Shown here: positions 1 through 9,400 of the stretch, piece after piece | Layout of the letters: every line of letters starts with the position of its first letter | Position numbering within the stretch: position 1 is the first letter of the stretch | Source: an uncultured Alphaproteobacteria bacterium | GTDB taxonomy: Bacteria; Vulcanimicrobiota; Vulcanimicrobiia; Vulcanimicrobiales; Vulcanimicrobiaceae | Length of the DNA: 64,000 nucleotides | Assembly: GCA_963787965.1 (NCBI GenBank) | Contig: CAWBES010000013.1 | Location: 2,338 to 66,337, forward strand | Direction: 5' to 3' | Position numbers and translations under genes: made by a program | The notes under the pieces: generated by a model | Seen by the model: only the letters and a program-made list of their open reading frames with translations | Database searches by the model: none | Told to the model about the DNA's origin: nothing

Positions 1-107
1 GCGGGATGGCGGAATTGGTATCCGTTCCCTAGCGCTTCCGAGCGCGATGAGGGAGGGAAGCCGCAAGACCTCGTACAGGAACCGAACGCTACCGGGCGAG
101 GAGGCCG

Positions 108-500
108 ATGATCCCCGAGAGCCGAGGAACCTTGATGCGGATTTATCTGGACGAAAGCGACCGCTGGCGCGGAACGGCGCTCTTCGATGCGATCGTGAAG
201 ACGCTCCTCGATAGCGGCATCGACGGCGCGACCGTTTTCAAAGGCGTCGAAGGGTACGGCGGACGCAAGCTGATCCACTCGTCGCGAGTCGTCGACGGCT
301 TGCAATCGCTGCCGGTGGTCATCGAAGTCCTCGACGACGAGGAACGCATACGCCGCGCGATCCCGCTCGTCGAGCCGATGATCGCGGGCGGCGTCATCAC
401 GCTCGAAAAGGTACAGATCATGCACTATCGGGCGGGAGAGGAAGCGGACGAACCGGCTGCCGCCGCGAGCGATGCCGATGCGGCGAACGCGGAACCTTAG
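108..500 (+). CDS. DUF190 / COG1993 PII-like protein, paralog 1
   Basis: The translation (LMRIYLDESDRWRG...DGATVFKGVEGYGG...LPVVIEVLDDEERI...GGVITLEKV) follows the DUF190 pattern (LRIY..e.D...g.pLy..iv...GiaGATV.rG..GfG...LP.vIE.vD.ee.i...G.itle.v). GAGGAGG lies just upstream of ATG 108. Confidence 0.85.
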   Translation: MIPESRGTLMRIYLDESDRWRGTALFDAIVKTLLDSGIDGATVFKGVEGYGGRKLIHSSRVVDGLQSLPVVIEVLDDEERIRRAIPLVEPMIAGGVITLEKVQIMHYRAGEEADEPAAAASDADAANAEP

Positions 501-835
501 CGCTTTTTCGCAGGAGCGAAGACCGCGAACTCGACGCGTTCGAGCGTGACCAAGCCTTCCGAAATCATGCTACGCAGTTGCGGTACGACCGCCACGATCT
601 TTTCAGGCTCGTCGACGACTTCGATGAGGACCGGAAGGTTCGGGAATCCGAAGACGCTCGAGACGTGCACCTGCTTGTGGGAGCCGAATCCTTCGATGCC
701 CATGAAGACCGTTGCCCCCGCGATACCGGCACGCTTGAGAGCGCCCACGATGGCCGTATAGAGCGGTTGACCGTGCCAGCGATCGTGCTGGTCCACGAAG
801 ATTCGTAGGAGCTTCCCCTCGTGAAAATCCGCCAT
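497..835 (-). CDS. DUF190 / COG1993 PII-like protein, paralog 2
   Basis: These are the last 112 codons of ORF 497..1474. The internal ATG (CAT at 833-835 on the + strand) opens MADFHEGKLLRIFVDQHDRWHG...AGATVFMGIEGFG...LPVLIEVVDEPEKI...GLVTLERVE. The ORF upstream of it is Arg-rich and not protein-like. Confidence 0.85.
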   Translation of the reverse strand: MADFHEGKLLRIFVDQHDRWHGQPLYTAIVGALKRAGIAGATVFMGIEGFGSHKQVHVSSVFGFPNLPVLIEVVDEPEKIVAVVPQLRSMISEGLVTLERVEFAVFAPAKKR

Positions 836-1055
836 TCCGATCCCACGCCTCTCTGACCGGCCGGTGCCGGCGTGCGACTTTGCCGCGCAGCGCCCGCCAT
901 CATTTTTCGCAGGTGCGCGTTCCCGCCGGCATCGGCCGGCCGCCGTCGTGCGGACCACTTTCACGATGCGGCGGATGGACGCGCATCCCTCGTCAGCGAC
1001 AACGCGCCTTGATATACTCGAAGGGGACAACGTGGATCGTTGTCGGGGGCCTGGT

Positions 1056-1406
1056 ATGGACGGATTCACGCCTGCGAAGCTGCTCCGCGTCTTCGTCGAC
1101 GATAACGACCGGCTCGGGGTGCAGCCCCTTCGCGTAGCGATCGTCGAGCTGCTGATGAAGCACGGGCTGGCGGGCGCCACCGTATTTCGCGGCGTCGAGG
1201 GCTTCGGGTGCCACGAGGTGATCCGTCGGGCAAAGGGCTTCGCCTGGCTGCCGAACCTGCCGATTCTCATCGAAGTCATCGACCGCGAGGAAAAAGTCGT
1301 CGCCGTCCTGCCCGACTTGCAAGCGATGATCCCCGACGGCTTGATCGTGCTCGAGTCGGTGGAAATCAAGCAGCTCAAGGGAGCGGTAGCTTCCAAGCGA
1401 AACTGA
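1056..1406 (+). CDS. DUF190 / COG1993 PII-like protein, paralog 3
   Basis: The internal ATG at 1056 of ORF 864..1406 opens MDGFTPAKLLRVFVDDNDRLG...AGATVFRGVEGFG...LPILIEVIDREEKV...GLIVLESVE. It looks clearly closer to paralog 2 than to paralog 1 by eye. Confidence 0.85.
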   Translation: MDGFTPAKLLRVFVDDNDRLGVQPLRVAIVELLMKHGLAGATVFRGVEGFGCHEVIRRAKGFAWLPNLPILIEVIDREEKVVAVLPDLQAMIPDGLIVLESVEIKQLKGAVASKRN

Positions 1407-1477
1407 GGGACTCGGTTCTTCGGCCGATATCGGTCTGACTGACGCGCCGGCTTTTCGACGACGGCTCGCGGCACGCC

Positions 1478-1516
1478 GAAGAAATAGCTAAGAAGACGAT
1501 GACGTGACGCATCGTC
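1478..1516 (-). terminator. Possible minus-strand intrinsic terminator
   Basis: GACGATG (1495-1501) pairs with CATCGTC (1510-1516) as a 7-bp stem with an 8-nt loop. On the minus strand it is followed by UUCUUAGCUAUUUCUUC. There is no U tail on the + strand. Confidence 0.3.
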
Positions 1517-1691
1517 TCCACCAAATCGGGCGCCGGTTCATCGAGCCAAAGGTACCTGCCGCCGCATGCCGGTGAGCGCGCTCGCGAACGCGACGGTCGG
1601 GAGCGTGCCGGCAGCCACGAGGAAGGCCGGCACCCGGCGAGACGGCGTCGACGCGAGGAACATCAGACCGCTTCCGAGAACGGCGCGGCAC

Positions 1692-1739
1692 GGCGATGGA
1701 GCTCGCCTTAACTGCCGATTCCGGCTGATGGCTCCTGTG
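1692..1739 (+). promoter_or_regulatory. Fluoride riboswitch (crcB RNA motif) aptamer
   Basis: The sequence reads GGCGAUGGAGCUCGCC UUAACU GCCG AUUC CGGC UGAUG GCUCC UGUG. P1 is GGCG/CGCC, the pseudoknot is GGAGC (1699-1703) with GCUCC (1731-1735), and P3 is GCCG/CGGC. The conserved GAUG, AACUGCC and GGCUGAUGG blocks match characterised fluoride aptamers almost base for base. It lies 90 nt upstream of the antiporter ATG. Confidence 0.85.
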
Positions 1740-1828
1740 TCAACAACGCGAGGCGGACGTGACATGGGCGCGGCCAACGGAATGTCTGAGTTTGTCGAGG
1801 TGCTCGTTACGCGCGCAGGAGCCCGCCG

Positions 1829-2986
1829 ATGAGCGCGCTCGCCGGGAATACGTGGATGGTCGCCGCGGTTTGGATGCTGCTGGCGGCGATCAGCGCGATT
1901 CTAGCCGTGCGTGTGAAGGTCGCCGCGGCGCTGGTCGAGATCGTCATCGGCATCCTCGCCGGGAGCTTCATCGATCTGCGCACGAACGACTGGGTCGACT
2001 TCGTGGCCGGGTTCGGGAGCATCTTGCTGACGTTCCTGGCCGGCGCCGAGATCGACCCGGTCGTGCTGCGCAAGCAGCTCGTTCCGTCCGCGACGCTCGG
2101 GTTCGTCTCGTTCCTCGCGCCTTGCGTGGGCGCGTGGGCCTACGCCCTCTACGTCGGTCACTGGACTCCCGACGGCGCGAAGATCGCGGGGATCGCGATG
2201 TCGACGACGTCGGTGGCCGTCGTGTATGCCGTACTCGTGGAGTCCGGACTCTCGAAACGGGAGTTCGGCCAACTGATCCTGGCCGCGTGCTTCTTCACCG
2301 ATCTCGGTACGGTCGTTGCGCTCGGCCTGCTGTTCGCGAACTACAACGTGTGGCTGGCCGCGCTCGTGCTGCTGATCCTCGCGAGCATGGCGGTCGTTCC
2401 CAAGATCTTGCCGCCGATGCTCGAGAGCATGCAGCGCTACGTCAGCGAGCCCGCGCTGCGCGTGCTGTTCGCGATCGTCTTCGTGCTCGCGGCGGTGGCG
2501 ACGTACGCGCGCAGCGAAGGCGTGCTGCCGGCGTACTTTCTCGGGCTCGCGTGCGCGGGCGTGATGATGACGTACCCGGACGTGAAGCGCCGGCTGCAGA
2601 CGATGACGATGACGATTCTCGCGCCCTTCTATTTTCTCAAGGCGGGCACGTTCGTCTCCCTGCGCGACGCGTGGAGCGGCGCGGGGATCATCGGCGCGCT
2701 CTTCTGCGTCAAGGTCTTCGCCAAGATCGGCGGCGTGTGGCCGGTCGCGCGGCTCCTCCGCTACGAAATCCGAGATGCGAGCTACCTGACGCTCCTGATG
2801 GCAACCGGACTCACGTTCGGGACGATCTCGAGCCTGTACGGCTTGACGCATCATTACATCGACCGCGCGCAGTACACGGCGCTCGTTACGGTCGTCATTC
2901 TGACGGCGGTCGTGCCGACGCTCGTCGCGCAAGCGATGTTCAAGCCGGCCGAGGAGCCGCCCGAGCTCGAGGCTGAAGTCCCGTAA
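1829..2986 (+). CDS. Cation:proton antiporter (CPA2 / Na+/H+ exchanger family), membrane domain only
   Basis: The 385-aa protein is polytopic and hydrophobic. The N-terminal LVEIVIGILAG...FGSILLTFLAGAEID and later GIAMSTTSVAVV blocks are typical of Kef/NapA-type exchangers. AGGAG lies 7 nt before ATG 1829. There is no C-terminal RCK/KTN domain. Confidence 0.85.
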   Translation: MSALAGNTWMVAAVWMLLAAISAILAVRVKVAAALVEIVIGILAGSFIDLRTNDWVDFVAGFGSILLTFLAGAEIDPVVLRKQLVPSATLGFVSFLAPCVGAWAYALYVGHWTPDGAKIAGIAMSTTSVAVVYAVLVESGLSKREFGQLILAACFFTDLGTVVALGLLFANYNVWLAALVLLILASMAVVPKILPPMLESMQRYVSEPALRVLFAIVFVLAAVATYARSEGVLPAYFLGLACAGVMMTYPDVKRRLQTMTMTILAPFYFLKAGTFVSLRDAWSGAGIIGALFCVKVFAKIGGVWPVARLLRYEIRDASYLTLLMATGLTFGTISSLYGLTHHYIDRAQYTALVTVVILTAVVPTLVAQAMFKPAEEPPELEAEVP

Positions 2987-3055
2987 CCGCCGCTTGCGGC
3001 CGGTTCGCTACCAAAGACCGGGCCTCACCCGCGCGGCCGATGGTACGATTCATCC

Positions 3056-4204
3056 ATGGCAAGCGACGCGCCGCAATCCCCAGCCTCCGAAACCATCTCG
3101 CCCATCACCGCAGCGTTCTTCTGGCCGCTCGCCGTGGGCGAAAGCGAGTGGAATCTCTACGCGCGGAATCTGAAGTTCTTCGGTGAGGCCGCCAAGCTCG
3201 ATTACGGGTTGCAGCCCGAGCTCGCCACCGCAAACGAGGTTCGGCTCGACCTGCGCACGATGACCTTACGCGATTACTCGCTAACGGCGGCGACGGGCGT
3301 CCCCACGATCGTCGACGCACCGTATGCGGGGCACTCGTCGATGATAGCGGATTTTGCGCCCGGCCAGAGCTTGATGCAAACGCTGCGCGCGAACGGTATG
3401 GGCCGGCTCTTCCTCACCGACTGGAAACCGGCGACGCCGGACATGAAGGACTTCGACTGCGACACGTATATCGCCGAGCTGAACGTCTGTGTCGACGATC
3501 TGGGCGGGCGGGTGAACCTGGTCGGCCTGTGCCAGGGCGGCTGGATGTCGGCCATGTACGCAGCGCGCTTTCCGGACAAGGTCGAGCGCATCGTGCTCGC
3601 CGGCGCGCCGATCGATACCGACGCCGGCGACGGCGCGGTCAAGCGGATGGCCCACGAGCTACCGGTCTCGTACTACGAGCAACTGGTCGCGGCCGACGGG
3701 GGCCTGGTCTCCGGGCGCATGATGCTCTTGGGCTGGAAGAATCTCGATCCGGAGAAGCAGTACGTCGAGAAGTACGTCGACCTTTACAAGAACCTCGACG
3801 ACCCCGCGTATCTCGAGCGCCAGGAACGCTTCTCGAGCTGGTACGAGAATCCGGTCGATCTGCCGGGCCGCTGGTACCTACAGGTCATCGTGCAGCTGTT
3901 CAAAGAGAACCGCTTGGCCAAGGGCGAGTTCGTCGCCCTGGGAAAGCGTCTCCGGCTCGCGGATGTCCGGTGTCCCGCCTACTTGCTCGCCGGCGCGGAG
4001 GACGCCATCACGCCGGCCGTGCAAGTCTTCAATGCCGAACAGTACCTCGGTACGCCCAAGGACCTCATCGTCAAGGAGACCGCGCCGGGCGGGCACATCG
4101 GCTTGTTCATGGGCTCGAACTCGCTTGCGGCGTATTGGCCGAAGATCGCGGCCTGGCTCGTCGCGTCCGGCGCCCCGGAGCCGGAGGGCTCGGGCCGGGC
4201 CTGA
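3056..4204 (+). CDS. Class III PhaC-like alpha/beta hydrolase (putative polyhydroxyalkanoate synthase)
   Basis: The lipase-box variant with Cys (VNLVGLCQGGWMSAMYAARFPDKV), together with later CPAYLLAGAEDAITP and PGGHIGLFMG, is collinear with class III PhaC. No phaE lies next to it. Confidence 0.6.
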   Translation: MASDAPQSPASETISPITAAFFWPLAVGESEWNLYARNLKFFGEAAKLDYGLQPELATANEVRLDLRTMTLRDYSLTAATGVPTIVDAPYAGHSSMIADFAPGQSLMQTLRANGMGRLFLTDWKPATPDMKDFDCDTYIAELNVCVDDLGGRVNLVGLCQGGWMSAMYAARFPDKVERIVLAGAPIDTDAGDGAVKRMAHELPVSYYEQLVAADGGLVSGRMMLLGWKNLDPEKQYVEKYVDLYKNLDDPAYLERQERFSSWYENPVDLPGRWYLQVIVQLFKENRLAKGEFVALGKRLRLADVRCPAYLLAGAEDAITPAVQVFNAEQYLGTPKDLIVKETAPGGHIGLFMGSNSLAAYWPKIAAWLVASGAPEPEGSGRA

Positions 4205-6456: not shown

Positions 6457-9400
6457 AACTCAAGTCGCTGCGCCTCTTCGGTTTCAAGACGTTTGCCGAA
6501 CAGACCGTGCTGACGTTCGAGCCCGGCATCACCGCGCTCGTCGGTCCCAACGGTTCGGGCAAGTCCAACCTGGTCGATGCGATCCGCTGGGTGCTGGGCG
6601 AGCAGAGCGCGAAGTCGCTGCGATCGTCGAAGACGGAGGACGTGATCTTCGCGGGCAACGAGCGGCGCAAACCGCTCGGCATGGCCGAAGTTGCGCTGAC
6701 CTTCGATAACGCGGATCGCGCGCTCAAACTGGACGCCAGCGAAGTTCAAATAACGCGCCGCGCCTATCGCGCGGGCGAGAGCGAGTTCTTCCTCAACCGC
6801 CAAAGCGTCCGGCTGCGCGACGTGATCGAGCTGCTGATGGGCACGGGCCTGGGCCCCGGCTCGTACGCGATCGTCTCGCAGGGCCAGATCGACGCGATCC
6901 TGGCGGCCAAACCCGCCGACCGCCGCGCGCTCTTCGAGGAGACGGCCGGCATCAACAAATTCCTGGCCCGCAAGAACGAGTCGCTGCGCCGCCTGGACCA
7001 AACCGAACAGAACGGCATCCGCGTCAACGACCTGATCCAGGAAATCGTCGGGCGGATTCCGGAGCTCGAGACGCAAGCGCGGCGCGCGCGCCGCTTTCGC
7101 AAGGCCTTCGCGCGGCTTCGCGACCTCGAGATCCTGTCGTACCTGCGGGCCGGCGCCCTGCGGCGCTCCGAACGCCAAGCGCTGCAGGCCGAACTCGAAG
7201 GTCTGGAGTTCGCGCGCGTGGCCGCCGCCGCCAAAGCGGCGAGCCTGGATGCCGAGCTCGCGTCGCTGCGCACGGATCTGTACGCGCGCGAGCGGGGCCT
7301 CGAGACGCTGCGCGTCGACGCGACGCAAGCGCGCGCGGAGCTGGCCGAGCTCGAAGCGCAGCTGGCGGCCGCCGGCGCGCGGCGCGAAGCCCTGGAGGCG
7401 CAATCGTCGCAGATTACCGGCGACCGCGAGCGGGCCGAAACCGAGCAGCGCGATTTACGGCTGGCCGTCGAGGCCCTCGAGGGCGAGATCGCACCGAAAT
7501 CCGCCGAGCTCGAACGCGAGCGTGGCCGCGAGCGGCAAGCGCAGGAAGCGCTCGCGACGGCGCGCGCCGCGCTCGACCGCATCTTCGCGGCGCTGCGCGA
7601 AGTCGAGGCGGTGGCCGCGGCGGAGGCCGCGAGCGAAGCGGAGCGCCGCGCGCAGCTGGCTGCGACCCAAGCCGACTACGAGCGGCTCGAACGCGAAGCG
7701 TTCGCCCTACGCGAAGACGCGGGAAAACGCAGCGCGCGCCTGGCGTCGCAAGCGCACGAGGCGACGGCGGCAGAGGCCGAACTGGCCGCGCTCGACGAGC
7801 GCGCCGCCGCCGCGCGGGAGGCCGCCTCGGCGGCGGACGAACGAGTCAAAGCCGCCGCGCAGGCCCTGGCCGACGCGCAACACGCCTACCGGGCGGCGAC
7901 GAGCGACCTCGCGAGCACGGAAGCGCGGCTGCACACGATCGAGGAACTCGAGGCGAACCTCGAAGGGCACATTCCGGGCACGCGCGCGATCCTCGAAGCC
8001 GACGCGCGCGGCGAGTTCAGCGGCATCCACGGCGTCGTCTCCAATCTGATTCGCGTCGACGAGCAGTTCGCGCGGGCGCTGGATATCGCGTTCGGCGCTT
8101 CGCTATCGAATATCGTGACCGAGACCGCCGAGGACGCCGAACGCGGGATCGCGTTCTTGCGCTCGCGCGAAGCGGGCCGCGCGACCTTTCTGCCGCTCGA
8201 TACGCTGGGCGCGCGCACCGGCCGCAACGCGAACGAGGTGCCGCGCGAGCGCGGCGTGATCGGCTACGCCCACACGCTCGTGGAACCCGCGGACCCGCGC
8301 TACGCGGGGATCGTCGCGTTTCTCGTCGGGCGTATTCTGATCGTGGAATCGCTCGAGGTCGGCGTTCGGCTCGTGCGCGGCCTCGGGTTCCGGGATGCGA
8401 TCGTGACGCTCGACGGCGACGAGATCCGCGGCGGCGGGGCGATGACCGGCGGCCGTTACAAGCGCGAACGCTCGATACTGTCGCGGCGCGCGCAGGCTCG
8501 CACGCTCTCCGAGGCGCTGCCGCAGTTGCGCGCGCGCTTGGAAGACGCGCAGGCCGCGGCCACGGCGGCCGGCGAGGAAAGCGCGGTTGCGACGCGCGAG
8601 CGCGACGAGGCGCACCGGATCGAAGGCGAGCTCGCGGTCAAGCTGCGCGACGCGTACGCGCTGGTCGAGACGTTGACCGTCGAGCGCCGCCGGTTGGAAG
8701 GCGAGGTCGCGGCGATGCTCGCAAGCGCGGCCGAACGCGATCGCGAAACGGCGGTCGCACGCGAGCGGCTCGCGCTGCTGGACCGCGCCTCGACCGGCGC
8801 CTCGACCGCGGCCGCAGACCGGGAGCGGCTCGAAGCGTCGCTGGCCGAAGCGCGCGAAACGATCGCGCGCGCGCAGGATGCCGAGCGCGCGGTCGCCGCC
8901 GAGATCGCCGCCGCGCGCGAAGCGGTGGCGACCTTGAGCGCGCGGCGCGACGGCGCGACCGCGCGCCTGGGACTGCTCGACGCCGACCGCGAACGTGCCG
9001 CCCGCGCGCGCGCCGCGATGAACGAGGAACTCGAGGCGCTCGCGGCGCGCATCGAGAGCGCCGAGTCGACCCTGGCACGGCTGCGCGAACGTGCGGCCGC
9101 CCTCGAGGCGCGCGATGCGCGGGCGCGGCGCGAACGCGATGCGGCTTTGCTGCGCGCGCAGCAGCTCGACGCCGACGTGCGGCTCGCGCAAGCCGCCGAG
9201 CGCGAGGCGGCGGCGTCCGGGGAAGGCGGGCGCATGCGCCTCGCCGAGATCGACGCGGAACTGGGCATGCTCGCGGCGCAGTTCGCCCAGAACCCGGCGA
9301 CCGCCGAAGAGTGCGCGGACGTCGAAGCGCGCTACGCGGCCGAGCGGGGCGATGTGGCGAGCGAAGTCGCACGCCTGCGCGACGAAATCGCGCGTCTGCA

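Follow-up and report, generated by a model that had tools for sequence, protein, structure and literature searches.

A riboswitch-controlled cation/proton exchanger with three DUF190 paralogs: probably a CrcB-less, rearranged variant of a widespread fluoride-defence cluster

A 64,000-nucleotide (nt) stretch of contig CAWBES010000013.1 from an uncultured bacterium (hereafter the window) carries three genes of the DUF190 family, a fluoride riboswitch and a cation/proton exchanger gene side by side, with no gene for the fluoride channel Fluc (CrcB) among them. We consider it probable that a widespread fluoride-defence cluster is present here in rearranged form and without CrcB, that DUF190 and the exchanger are joint members of it, and that DUF190 has Fluc/CrcB as its primary partner. 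Current explanations of fluoride resistance invoke two exporters (Fluc and CLC-F) and a riboswitch regulon, whose accessory genes have, to our knowledge, mostly not been characterised. DUF190 genes are among the most consistent neighbours of crcB, and structures of the family have been solved (2dcl, 1o51).

Layout of the locus

All three DUF190 open reading frames (ORFs) match PF02641 over the full domain, each covering about positions 1-97 of the 97 in the profile: d1 (108-500, plus strand, 130 amino acids (aa)) with an E-value of 1.4e-31 and 109.1 bits, d2 (497-835, minus strand, 112 aa) with 6.1e-34 and 116.6 bits, and d3 (1056-1406, plus strand, 116 aa) with 1.5e-30 and 105.8 bits, against a gathering score of 23.4. 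The genes d1 and d2 are convergent and have the four bases 497-500 (TTAG) in common; d2 and d3 are divergent. On the plus strand there follow the aptamer of the riboswitch (RF01734, 1683-1744, 52.1 bits, E 1.5e-11), a putative expression platform (1745-1828) and the exchanger gene (1829-2986, 385 aa, PF00999, E 6.9e-37). The layout given in an initial annotation of this DNA was thus confirmed, both in the coordinates and strands of the DUF190 genes, with their convergent overlap and divergent second pair, and in the position of the riboswitch directly 5′ of the exchanger ORF. An independent assembly of the same locus (L025) has identical gene calls of 130, 112 and 116 aa, and two assemblies and two read sets agree exactly on the DUF190 genes. 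L025 also adds 10 kb to the left of the window, containing an MGS-like gene, a CoA-transferase, L27, Obg and similar genes.

The absence of an exporter gene was examined in several ways. A hidden Markov model (HMM) of CrcB, seeded from the E. coli CrcB sequence checked against PF02537, was run against every ORF of 25 aa or more, both in the window and in L025, and returned noise only (best E 0.24). A pseudogene or remnant of CrcB, in the spacer between d3 and the riboswitch or elsewhere, was also considered and rejected, nothing beyond noise appearing at E<10. At least three hydrophobic segments were found in six ORFs of the window (the exchanger, DUF1980, a GT4 transferase, ATP synthase a, ATP synthase c and one ORF with no Pfam match), and no CLC is among them; nor is there an exporter among the gene calls in the 10 kb to the left. 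The claim that the window has no CrcB/Fluc or CLC-type gene is therefore borne out, and the absence of both holds for these 74 kb only.

Genomic neighbourhood of DUF190 genes

For a census of DUF190 loci, metagenome contigs were scanned with a DUF190 alignment, and 80 loci were kept and annotated with local HMMs. Complete loci (n=39) were defined as those with at least 500 nt on both sides. In 54 of the 80 loci, and in 35 of the 39 with both flanks, the gene immediately next to the DUF190 block is a same-strand CrcB, so that the status of DUF190 as a frequent crcB neighbour, given in the initial annotation, is well founded. An exchanger, in contrast, lies near DUF190 in 8 of 80 loci, 6 of which also have CrcB. 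Conserved co-occurrence with DUF190, taken as the mark of a regulatory pair, was found for Fluc/CrcB and not for the exchanger. A fluoride riboswitch was detected with our own covariance model at 24 of the 80 loci, the typical order being riboswitch-CrcB-DUF190(s), and the many riboswitch-controlled operons that hold DUF190 bear out its suspected link to fluoride.

Complete loci hold one DUF190 copy in 28 cases, two in 4 and three in 7. Among 15 tandem triplets, copies at the same position in different loci are 48%, 56% and 61% identical, compared with 29%, 29% and 48% for copies at different positions. Because identity is position-specific in this way, the triplets are ancient fixed sets and not recent duplications. 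DUF190 pairs likewise consist of two recurring subfamilies.

Two further features of these neighbourhoods were observed. In some triplet loci, CrcB and the first DUF190 gene are about 580 nt apart (L077 2703-3283, L081 1323-1904, L092 3655-4236), and the gap in L081 holds a 193-aa ORF. A dynamin-like GTPase (Pfam Dynamin_N), often present as two paralogs, flanks clusters of CrcB and three DUF190 genes on the same strand (L103 5258-9102; L068 1555-3726 and 5314-7104; L077 206-2308 and 4355-6166; also L100, L081, L087 and L107); it is the commonest family among 150 ORFs flanking DUF190 blocks, with 12 matches. The window has no homolog of it.

Fuller clusters and CrcB-less relatives

Clusters with a fuller gene set than that of the window were found repeatedly. 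For example, L103 reads riboswitch-exchanger-CrcB, then three DUF190 genes, then two dynamin-like GTPases, and in L084 the exchanger is under one of two divergent riboswitches and CrcB with three DUF190 genes under the other. In L030, L039, L003 and L004, a first DUF190 gene is followed by riboswitch-DUF190-CrcB-exchanger; L003 and L004 are Eremiobacterota genomes whose exchangers are 74-75% identical to that of the window. The window copies can be placed within this arrangement. Gene d2 falls in subfamily cluster 12, the riboswitch-controlled copy that precedes crcB in relatives, while d3 falls in cluster 10, the copy just upstream of the riboswitch in L003, L004, L030 and L039, which is also the lone divergent copy in L002 and L024; d3 is 59% identical to the L002 copy. 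Gene d1 stands alone in the clustering, and its nearest relatives, at 48-50% identity, are those of L038, L041 and L036, single-copy DUF190 genes usually found directly upstream of crcB. Because fuller clusters with the same DUF190 subfamilies exist, the window falls into a set of rearranged variants, all without CrcB, of a recurring cluster.

Other members of this set differ in their surroundings. In L002, the closest species-level relative, the exchanger is 89% identical, and only the riboswitch-exchanger segment and an inverted d3 homolog align with the DNA of the window, the flanking genes being unrelated. L024 and L108 have one divergent DUF190 gene, a riboswitch and an exchanger in yet other contexts. 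The most window-like locus is L060, with the order exchanger-DUF190-DUF190 and a convergent overlapping third copy, again without CrcB. The adjacency of DUF190 and exchanger, which had been proposed as something to look for beyond this genome, thus recurs at L002, L024, L108 and L060, and with the window and L061 there are at least six loci where DUF190 stands beside an exchanger without CrcB.

It could be argued that such adjacency is meaningless, the DUF190 genes being decaying passengers left after crcB was lost or moved. In its favour are the unusual divergence of d1, whose best non-self homolog is 49% identical and whose C-terminal tail of about 25 aa is odd, acidic, Ala-rich and of low complexity; the DNA homologous to d3, which by blastn is inverted relative to L002; and the lack of CrcB where related clusters have it. 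All three proteins, however, keep every invariant residue of the family and score 106-117 bits against Pfam, their genes are identical in two assemblies and two read sets, and the same CrcB-less layout recurs in other lineages. We regard the passenger explanation as highly improbable; d1, d2 and d3 are intact, anciently diverged paralogs.

Fluoride riboswitch and expression platform

The RF01734 match spans model positions 1-64 of 64, exceeds the gathering score of 34, and no other Rfam family reaches its threshold in the 64 kb. Stem P1 is formed by 1692-1695 and 1704-1707, and the pseudoknot by 1698-1703 with 1730-1735. In an alignment of 20 homologs, 96% of the cells in P1, P3 and the pseudoknot are paired, and compensatory changes occur in 6 pairs; the pseudoknot pair 25/71, for example, is UA in 12 and CG in 8 sequences. 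None of 500 shuffles reached the observed covariation score.

The sequence CAGGAGCC (1816-1823) contains the Shine-Dalgarno (SD) motif AGGAG, which ends 7 nt 5′ of the ATG, and the aptamer 3′ strand GGCUCCUG (1730-1737) is its exact complement. In L005-L007 and L108 the aptamer tail likewise pairs with (G)ACAGGAG just 5′ of the start codon, and in L005-L007 this tail/SD hairpin is followed by a U-run. Compared with relatives, the window has an insertion of about 75 nt in the hairpin loop, and the minimum free energy fold of its platform is no better than shuffles (z = 0.51). We accepted the SD-sequestering pairing only because relatives conserve it. Since the aptamer tail cannot occupy the pseudoknot and the SD hairpin together, the platform is likely a translational, fluoride-ON switch that would free the ribosome-binding site. 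An intrinsic terminator was considered as the expression platform and rejected after a consensus scan of 1745-1828 gave none. In L060, a degenerate riboswitch-like element (7237-7322, minus strand, 6.1 bits) has GGAGGAG in place of GAUGGAG and keeps the tail/SD complement (CUCCUACGA / UCGUAGGAG); it was not counted as a riboswitch.

All three DUF190 genes of the window lie outside this control, and because they are upstream of the aptamer or on the opposite strand, the riboswitch does not make them fluoride-inducible. A second, weaker riboswitch serving them was sought by a permissive Rfam scan of 1-3200, which gave the one aptamer plus noise.

Fold and forms of the DUF190 family

The initial annotation had placed DUF190 in the PII-like fold, and structural modelling agrees. 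An AlphaFold2 model of d2 (pLDDT 79.8) has a beta-alpha-beta-loop-beta-alpha-beta fold, with strands at residues 5-14, 42-45, 69-75 and 95-103, helices at 25-35 and 77-90, and between beta2 and beta3 a T-loop-like segment (48-60) that is modelled with low confidence. Foldseek placed 2dcl and 1o51 first (5e-8), followed by CPII, TTHA0516, SbtB (including the SbtA-SbtB complex) and GlnK, with E-values to CPII, SbtB and GlnK of about 1e-5 to 2e-3. At the sequence level, d2 matches 2dcl with E 2.8e-22, and this PDB entry has three chains. By this model, the fold of DUF190 is PII-like.

A profile search of 1.84 billion representatives gave 5896 DUF190 proteins, among which are many single-chain forms with two domains (about 240 aa) or three (about 350-370 aa), as well as fusions to two or four CBS domains (P0239, P0242, P0246, P0254, P0275). 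The three-domain proteins P0169, P0222 and P0223 (about 500-525 aa) each end in a C-terminal tail of some 150 aa that matches nothing in Pfam. Three-domain chains were considered as fusions of the three-gene sets, and this origin was rejected: their domain order does not map onto triplet positions 1-2-3, so that they are independent triplications. A heteromeric DUF190 assembly is plausible because the multi-paralog sets are ancient and position-specific and because two- and three-domain single chains exist. Taken together, the PII-like fold, these chains and the CBS fusions point to a nucleotide-sensing regulator.

There are two ways in which such a regulator might act more broadly than on Fluc. 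DUF190 proteins could be general fluoride or energy-state sensors with several targets in the regulon (Fluc, the exchanger and dynamin-like GTPases), which might, for example, bind ADP or AMP with Mg-fluoride as CPII binds ADP or AMP with bicarbonate. Operons that unite DUF190 with CrcB, exchanger and dynamin-like GTPases (L103, L068, L077) would suit such a role, as would the common arrangement of one copy outside and one inside riboswitch control (L003, L004, L030, L039), the CBS fusions, the position of CPII as the closest fold outside the family, and a Gly-rich motif, GxxGATVxxGxxGxG, that resembles the base of the PII T-loop. The nucleotide motif of the PII B-loop, on the other hand, is not conserved in our alignment as compared with GlnB, and so close and near-constant a neighbour as crcB speaks for a specific partner; we therefore think general sensing unlikely. 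Alternatively, DUF190 could be a PII-type halide-stress family whose hetero-trimers, built of two or three ancient paralogs, sense fluoride and control Fluc, the exchanger or both, conceivably through ADP-Mg-fluoride held in an inter-subunit cleft modelled on the ADP/AMP and bicarbonate site of CPII. This analogy is speculative, and we offer it as a possibility of low probability. If it holds, the CrcB-less loci would show the exchanger as a genuine second target, or the exchanger and DUF190 replacing the channel in some lineages.

The exchanger and its clade

The 385-aa ORF matches PF00999 (Na_H_Exchanger) at 127.6 bits over residues 17-369 and has no other domain. The earlier description of a membrane domain without further regulatory parts therefore stands, while 'CPA2-type' is only loosely right, TIGR00932 (CPA2) scoring 86.8 bits against a cut-off of 238.3. 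Homologs number more than 8000 at E<=1e-10, with top matches 72-75% identical across genera, and the closest are from metagenome-assembled genomes (MAGs) named Candidatus Eremiobacteraeota, Cybelea, Tyrphobacter and Aquilonibacter; the window itself belongs to an Eremiobacterota genome. No direct PDB sequence match was obtained with phmmer; a profile of the family matches NapA (4bwz, E 4e-12), the nearest solved protein. Motif T157-D158 in transmembrane segment (TM) 5 aligns with D156-D157 of NapA, other members of the clade having T-D or N-D, and the D-D motif of electrogenic members (NapA, NhaA) is absent from the window exchanger. A TM10 lysine, K299, is invariant in the clade and aligns with K305 of NapA. 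The single carboxylate in TM5 suggests electroneutral exchange, which is probable because T/N-D replaces D-D. No biochemical characterisation of the clade was found in the literature searched.

A census of the clade comprised 23 genomic loci, 22 of which have enough upstream sequence for a riboswitch to be judged. A riboswitch is present at 18 of these 22 (16 at the RF01734 gathering score and 2 by a custom model), either directly upstream of the exchanger or heading its operon. The loci span Eremiobacterota, Rhodopila, Kiritimatiellae, Planctomycetales, Sumerlaeia, Verrucomicrobia, Thermodesulfobacteriota and Ktedonobacterales, and among the 22 only the Desulfomonile/Syntrophaceae group is without a riboswitch. 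Further genes in the exchanger operons encode enolase, universal stress proteins, a metallophosphoesterase and dynamin-like GTPases. This is the company of the classic fluoride regulon, and the clade is dedicated to that regulon. Fluoride-riboswitch-controlled Na+/H+ antiporters are a class from Baker et al. 2012, as summarised in PMC11139923, where they rank as the next most common riboswitch-associated class after the exporters and are given a pH-homeostasis rationale. Antiporters had accordingly been recognised in the initial annotation as a riboswitch-regulated class, and they are more common than was assumed there.

Several loci of the clade have features of their own. A stretch of 7 kb in L015 (7848-14708, Planctomycetales) has four fluoride riboswitches, which precede the exchanger, a dynamin-like GTPase on the minus strand, a second GTPase-like ORF and a metallophosphoesterase-enolase pair. 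Dynamin-like GTPases stand with the exchanger in riboswitch operons at L011 3095-4924, L017 6055-7920 and L015 10702-12891. Two riboswitch-controlled exchanger copies are found on two contigs of one Rhodopila MAG (L013 and L021), and both L012 and L021 have another riboswitch 4 kb further upstream, ahead of a glutamine-synthetase-like ORF and a tandem pair of universal-stress-protein genes. In L022 (8207-9144, Eremiobacterota), the exchanger HMM matches in two pieces, 8207-8854 and 8872-9144, which suggests a frameshift or pseudogene; after the split exchanger come a DUF190 gene on the minus strand, another on the plus strand and CrcB on the plus strand.

The interpretation first proposed for the window was that d1-d3 form a heterotrimeric cytoplasmic regulator that docks on the exchanger, the pair being a self-sufficient alternative to Fluc/CLC-F. 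The six CrcB-less loci, in varied contexts, are what such a partnership would produce, and L060 even shares the convergent overlapping DUF190 pair. An antiporter gene, flH, and a DUF190 gene, flJ, which is sometimes duplicated, also occur together in fluorinase clusters (PMC9173684). To this can be added the ancient paralog sets, the three-domain single chains and a fold that resembles the transporter regulators SbtB, CPII and GlnK. A dedication to the exchanger is nevertheless disfavoured by the exchanger loci themselves, of which 18 of 23 have no DUF190 gene within 8 kb; the 5 that have one are all from Eremiobacterota, and none outside that group does. The census of DUF190 loci, where CrcB and not the exchanger is the regular neighbour, weighs the same way, as does the position of the window DUF190 genes outside riboswitch control. 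Fluc and CPA (NapA-type) exchangers are dimers, NapA being the closest structure here, and a trimeric, threefold plug is therefore a poor analogy for either protein. Replacement of Fluc by a DUF190-exchanger pair is also disfavoured, DUF190 being mostly found with CrcB and the lack of Fluc applying to the 74 kb examined. Of this interpretation, the heteromer is plausible and its dedication to the exchanger is not supported; as a whole it appears distinctly unlikely.

Proposed mechanism

The explanation that we consider probable, a CrcB-less variant of a shared cluster, could operate as follows. Without fluoride, the aptamer 3′ strand would pair with the SD region and block translation; fluoride, as a Mg-F complex, would lock this strand in the pseudoknot, leaving the ribosome-binding site free and allowing the exchanger to be made. 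The exchanger would expel protons brought in by the diffusion and dissociation of HF, keeping up the pH and the proton-motive force on which fluoride export depends. If exchange is electroneutral, an inward Na+ gradient could drive H+ out, which would suit an acid load from HF. The DUF190 proteins would be cytoplasmic PII-type trimers, or hetero-oligomers where several paralogs exist, that may respond to an adenylate, Mg or anion signal and adjust the fluoride response. They would have Fluc/CrcB as their main partner, probably encoded elsewhere in the genome of the window, and would not be specific regulators of the exchanger; that they adjoin it would reflect descent from one cluster and membership of one regulon.

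In a search for CrcB homologs, which 7912 proteins matched, CrcB proved common in the phylum, and many exchanger homologs share a contig with CrcB, as judged from matching contig sizes. The window-like relative L108 appears to keep a CrcB-DUF190 locus (L036) elsewhere on its contig, the contig of L036 (803,394 bp) being of the same size as the longest contig with P0030, the exchanger of L108.

Several points weigh against a shared cluster with Fluc/CrcB as the main partner. The link between L036 and L108 consists in this equality of size only, and among the 120 of 7912 CrcB matches listed, none is on a contig sized as those of the window (799,647 or 208,640 bp). The at least six CrcB-less DUF190-exchanger loci exceed what a relic model strictly needs and fit a direct link between DUF190 and the exchanger. 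Among the best 150 of the 5896 DUF190 proteins, none is fused to CrcB or to an exchanger in the manner of a Rosetta-stone protein, the extra domains in fusions being CBS. What the exchanger transports, and in which direction, is deduced solely from its motifs and from the pH-homeostasis argument of the review (PMC11139923).

Neighbouring features

Ahead of d3, at 990-1018 on the plus strand, lies a sigma-70-like promoter match, TCGTCA-17-TATACT, which is weak (1 site against 0.5 expected). A search for operator-like palindromes in the two intergenic regions gave weak GC-rich repeats only. Downstream of the exchanger by 70 nt and on the same strand (3056-4204, plus) is a gene for a 382-aa alpha/beta hydrolase akin to class III PHA synthase or PHB depolymerase (DUF3141, PHB_depo_C), followed by a FabF-like ketoacyl synthase gene and then by that of RNase III. 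The hydrolase is probably outside the module, since it is not conserved beside the exchanger in relatives. In the Eremiobacterota loci L003 (3495-3605) and L004 (3436-3546), there are also TPP riboswitches, some 3.5 kb upstream of the fluoride cluster and unrelated to it.

Significance and relation to known systems

To the picture of what surrounds crcB, the DUF190 census adds sets of two or three genes in fixed combinations, single-chain proteins, fusions to CBS domains, control by the riboswitch and an association with dynamin-like GTPases. Fluoride export is thought to run on an always-open channel and an RNA switch. If DUF190 proteins are PII-type regulators of fluoride export or of pH homeostasis, a layer of control at the protein level would be added, and the principle of PII signalling would be extended to halide stress. 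As one of many rearranged examples, the window also offers a natural channel-less configuration in which effects of DUF190 on the exchanger could be separated from those on Fluc. The question has practical relevance for engineering fluoride tolerance in hosts for the degradation or synthesis of organofluorines (PMC11139923).

The locus had been put forward as a candidate undescribed module, but modules of this kind have been described. The riboswitch-exchanger unit is known from earlier work (PMC11139923), as is the co-occurrence of flH and flJ (PMC9173684), and the crcB-DUF190 neighbourhood is visible in databases. In the literature searched, we found no study of a role for DUF190, UPF0166 or PII-like proteins in fluoride resistance or with crcB, beyond the annotation of flJ. 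What is new in the window is the CrcB-less variant with three paralogs.

Compared with the antiporter class of Baker et al., the window shows no difference in kind. It shares the RF01734 element directly 5′ of a PF00999 exchanger, and its clade shares operons with enolase and universal stress proteins; the T/N-D motif in place of D-D sets the clade apart. The best solved relative, NapA (the CPA2 protein of Thermus thermophilus; 4bwz, 5bz2, 5bz3), aligns over about 350 residues and has the same TM10 lysine, and differs in the acidic pair of TM5 noted above. In actinomycete fluorinase clusters, flH (a cation:H+ antiporter) and one or two DUF190 genes (flJ) similarly form a fluoride-related set with no exporter gene in the cluster (PMC9173684); these clusters differ in their context of fluorometabolite biosynthesis and have no riboswitch described there, FlH being compared by description only. 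With the PII-type pairs GlnK-AmtB, SbtB-SbtA and CPII with its DAB/inorganic-carbon transporter, DUF190 has in common a doubled beta-alpha-beta, ferredoxin-like fold, a flexible T-loop-like segment and a gene that adjoins one for an ion transporter or channel. Its sequence identity to GlnK, SbtB and CPII is only 13-23%, and its candidate partners (Fluc and the CPA exchanger) are dimers and not trimers. The crcB-DUF190 operons, in which the Fluc channel gene has COG1993/UPF0166 neighbours, are also close to the locus. The window departs from them in lacking crcB across the 74 kb around its genes, in having no DUF190 copy downstream of the riboswitch, and in its rearranged copies, with a convergent overlapping pair and one gene inverted relative to L002; its copies nonetheless belong to the same DUF190 subfamilies as the pair and single types that stand beside crcB.

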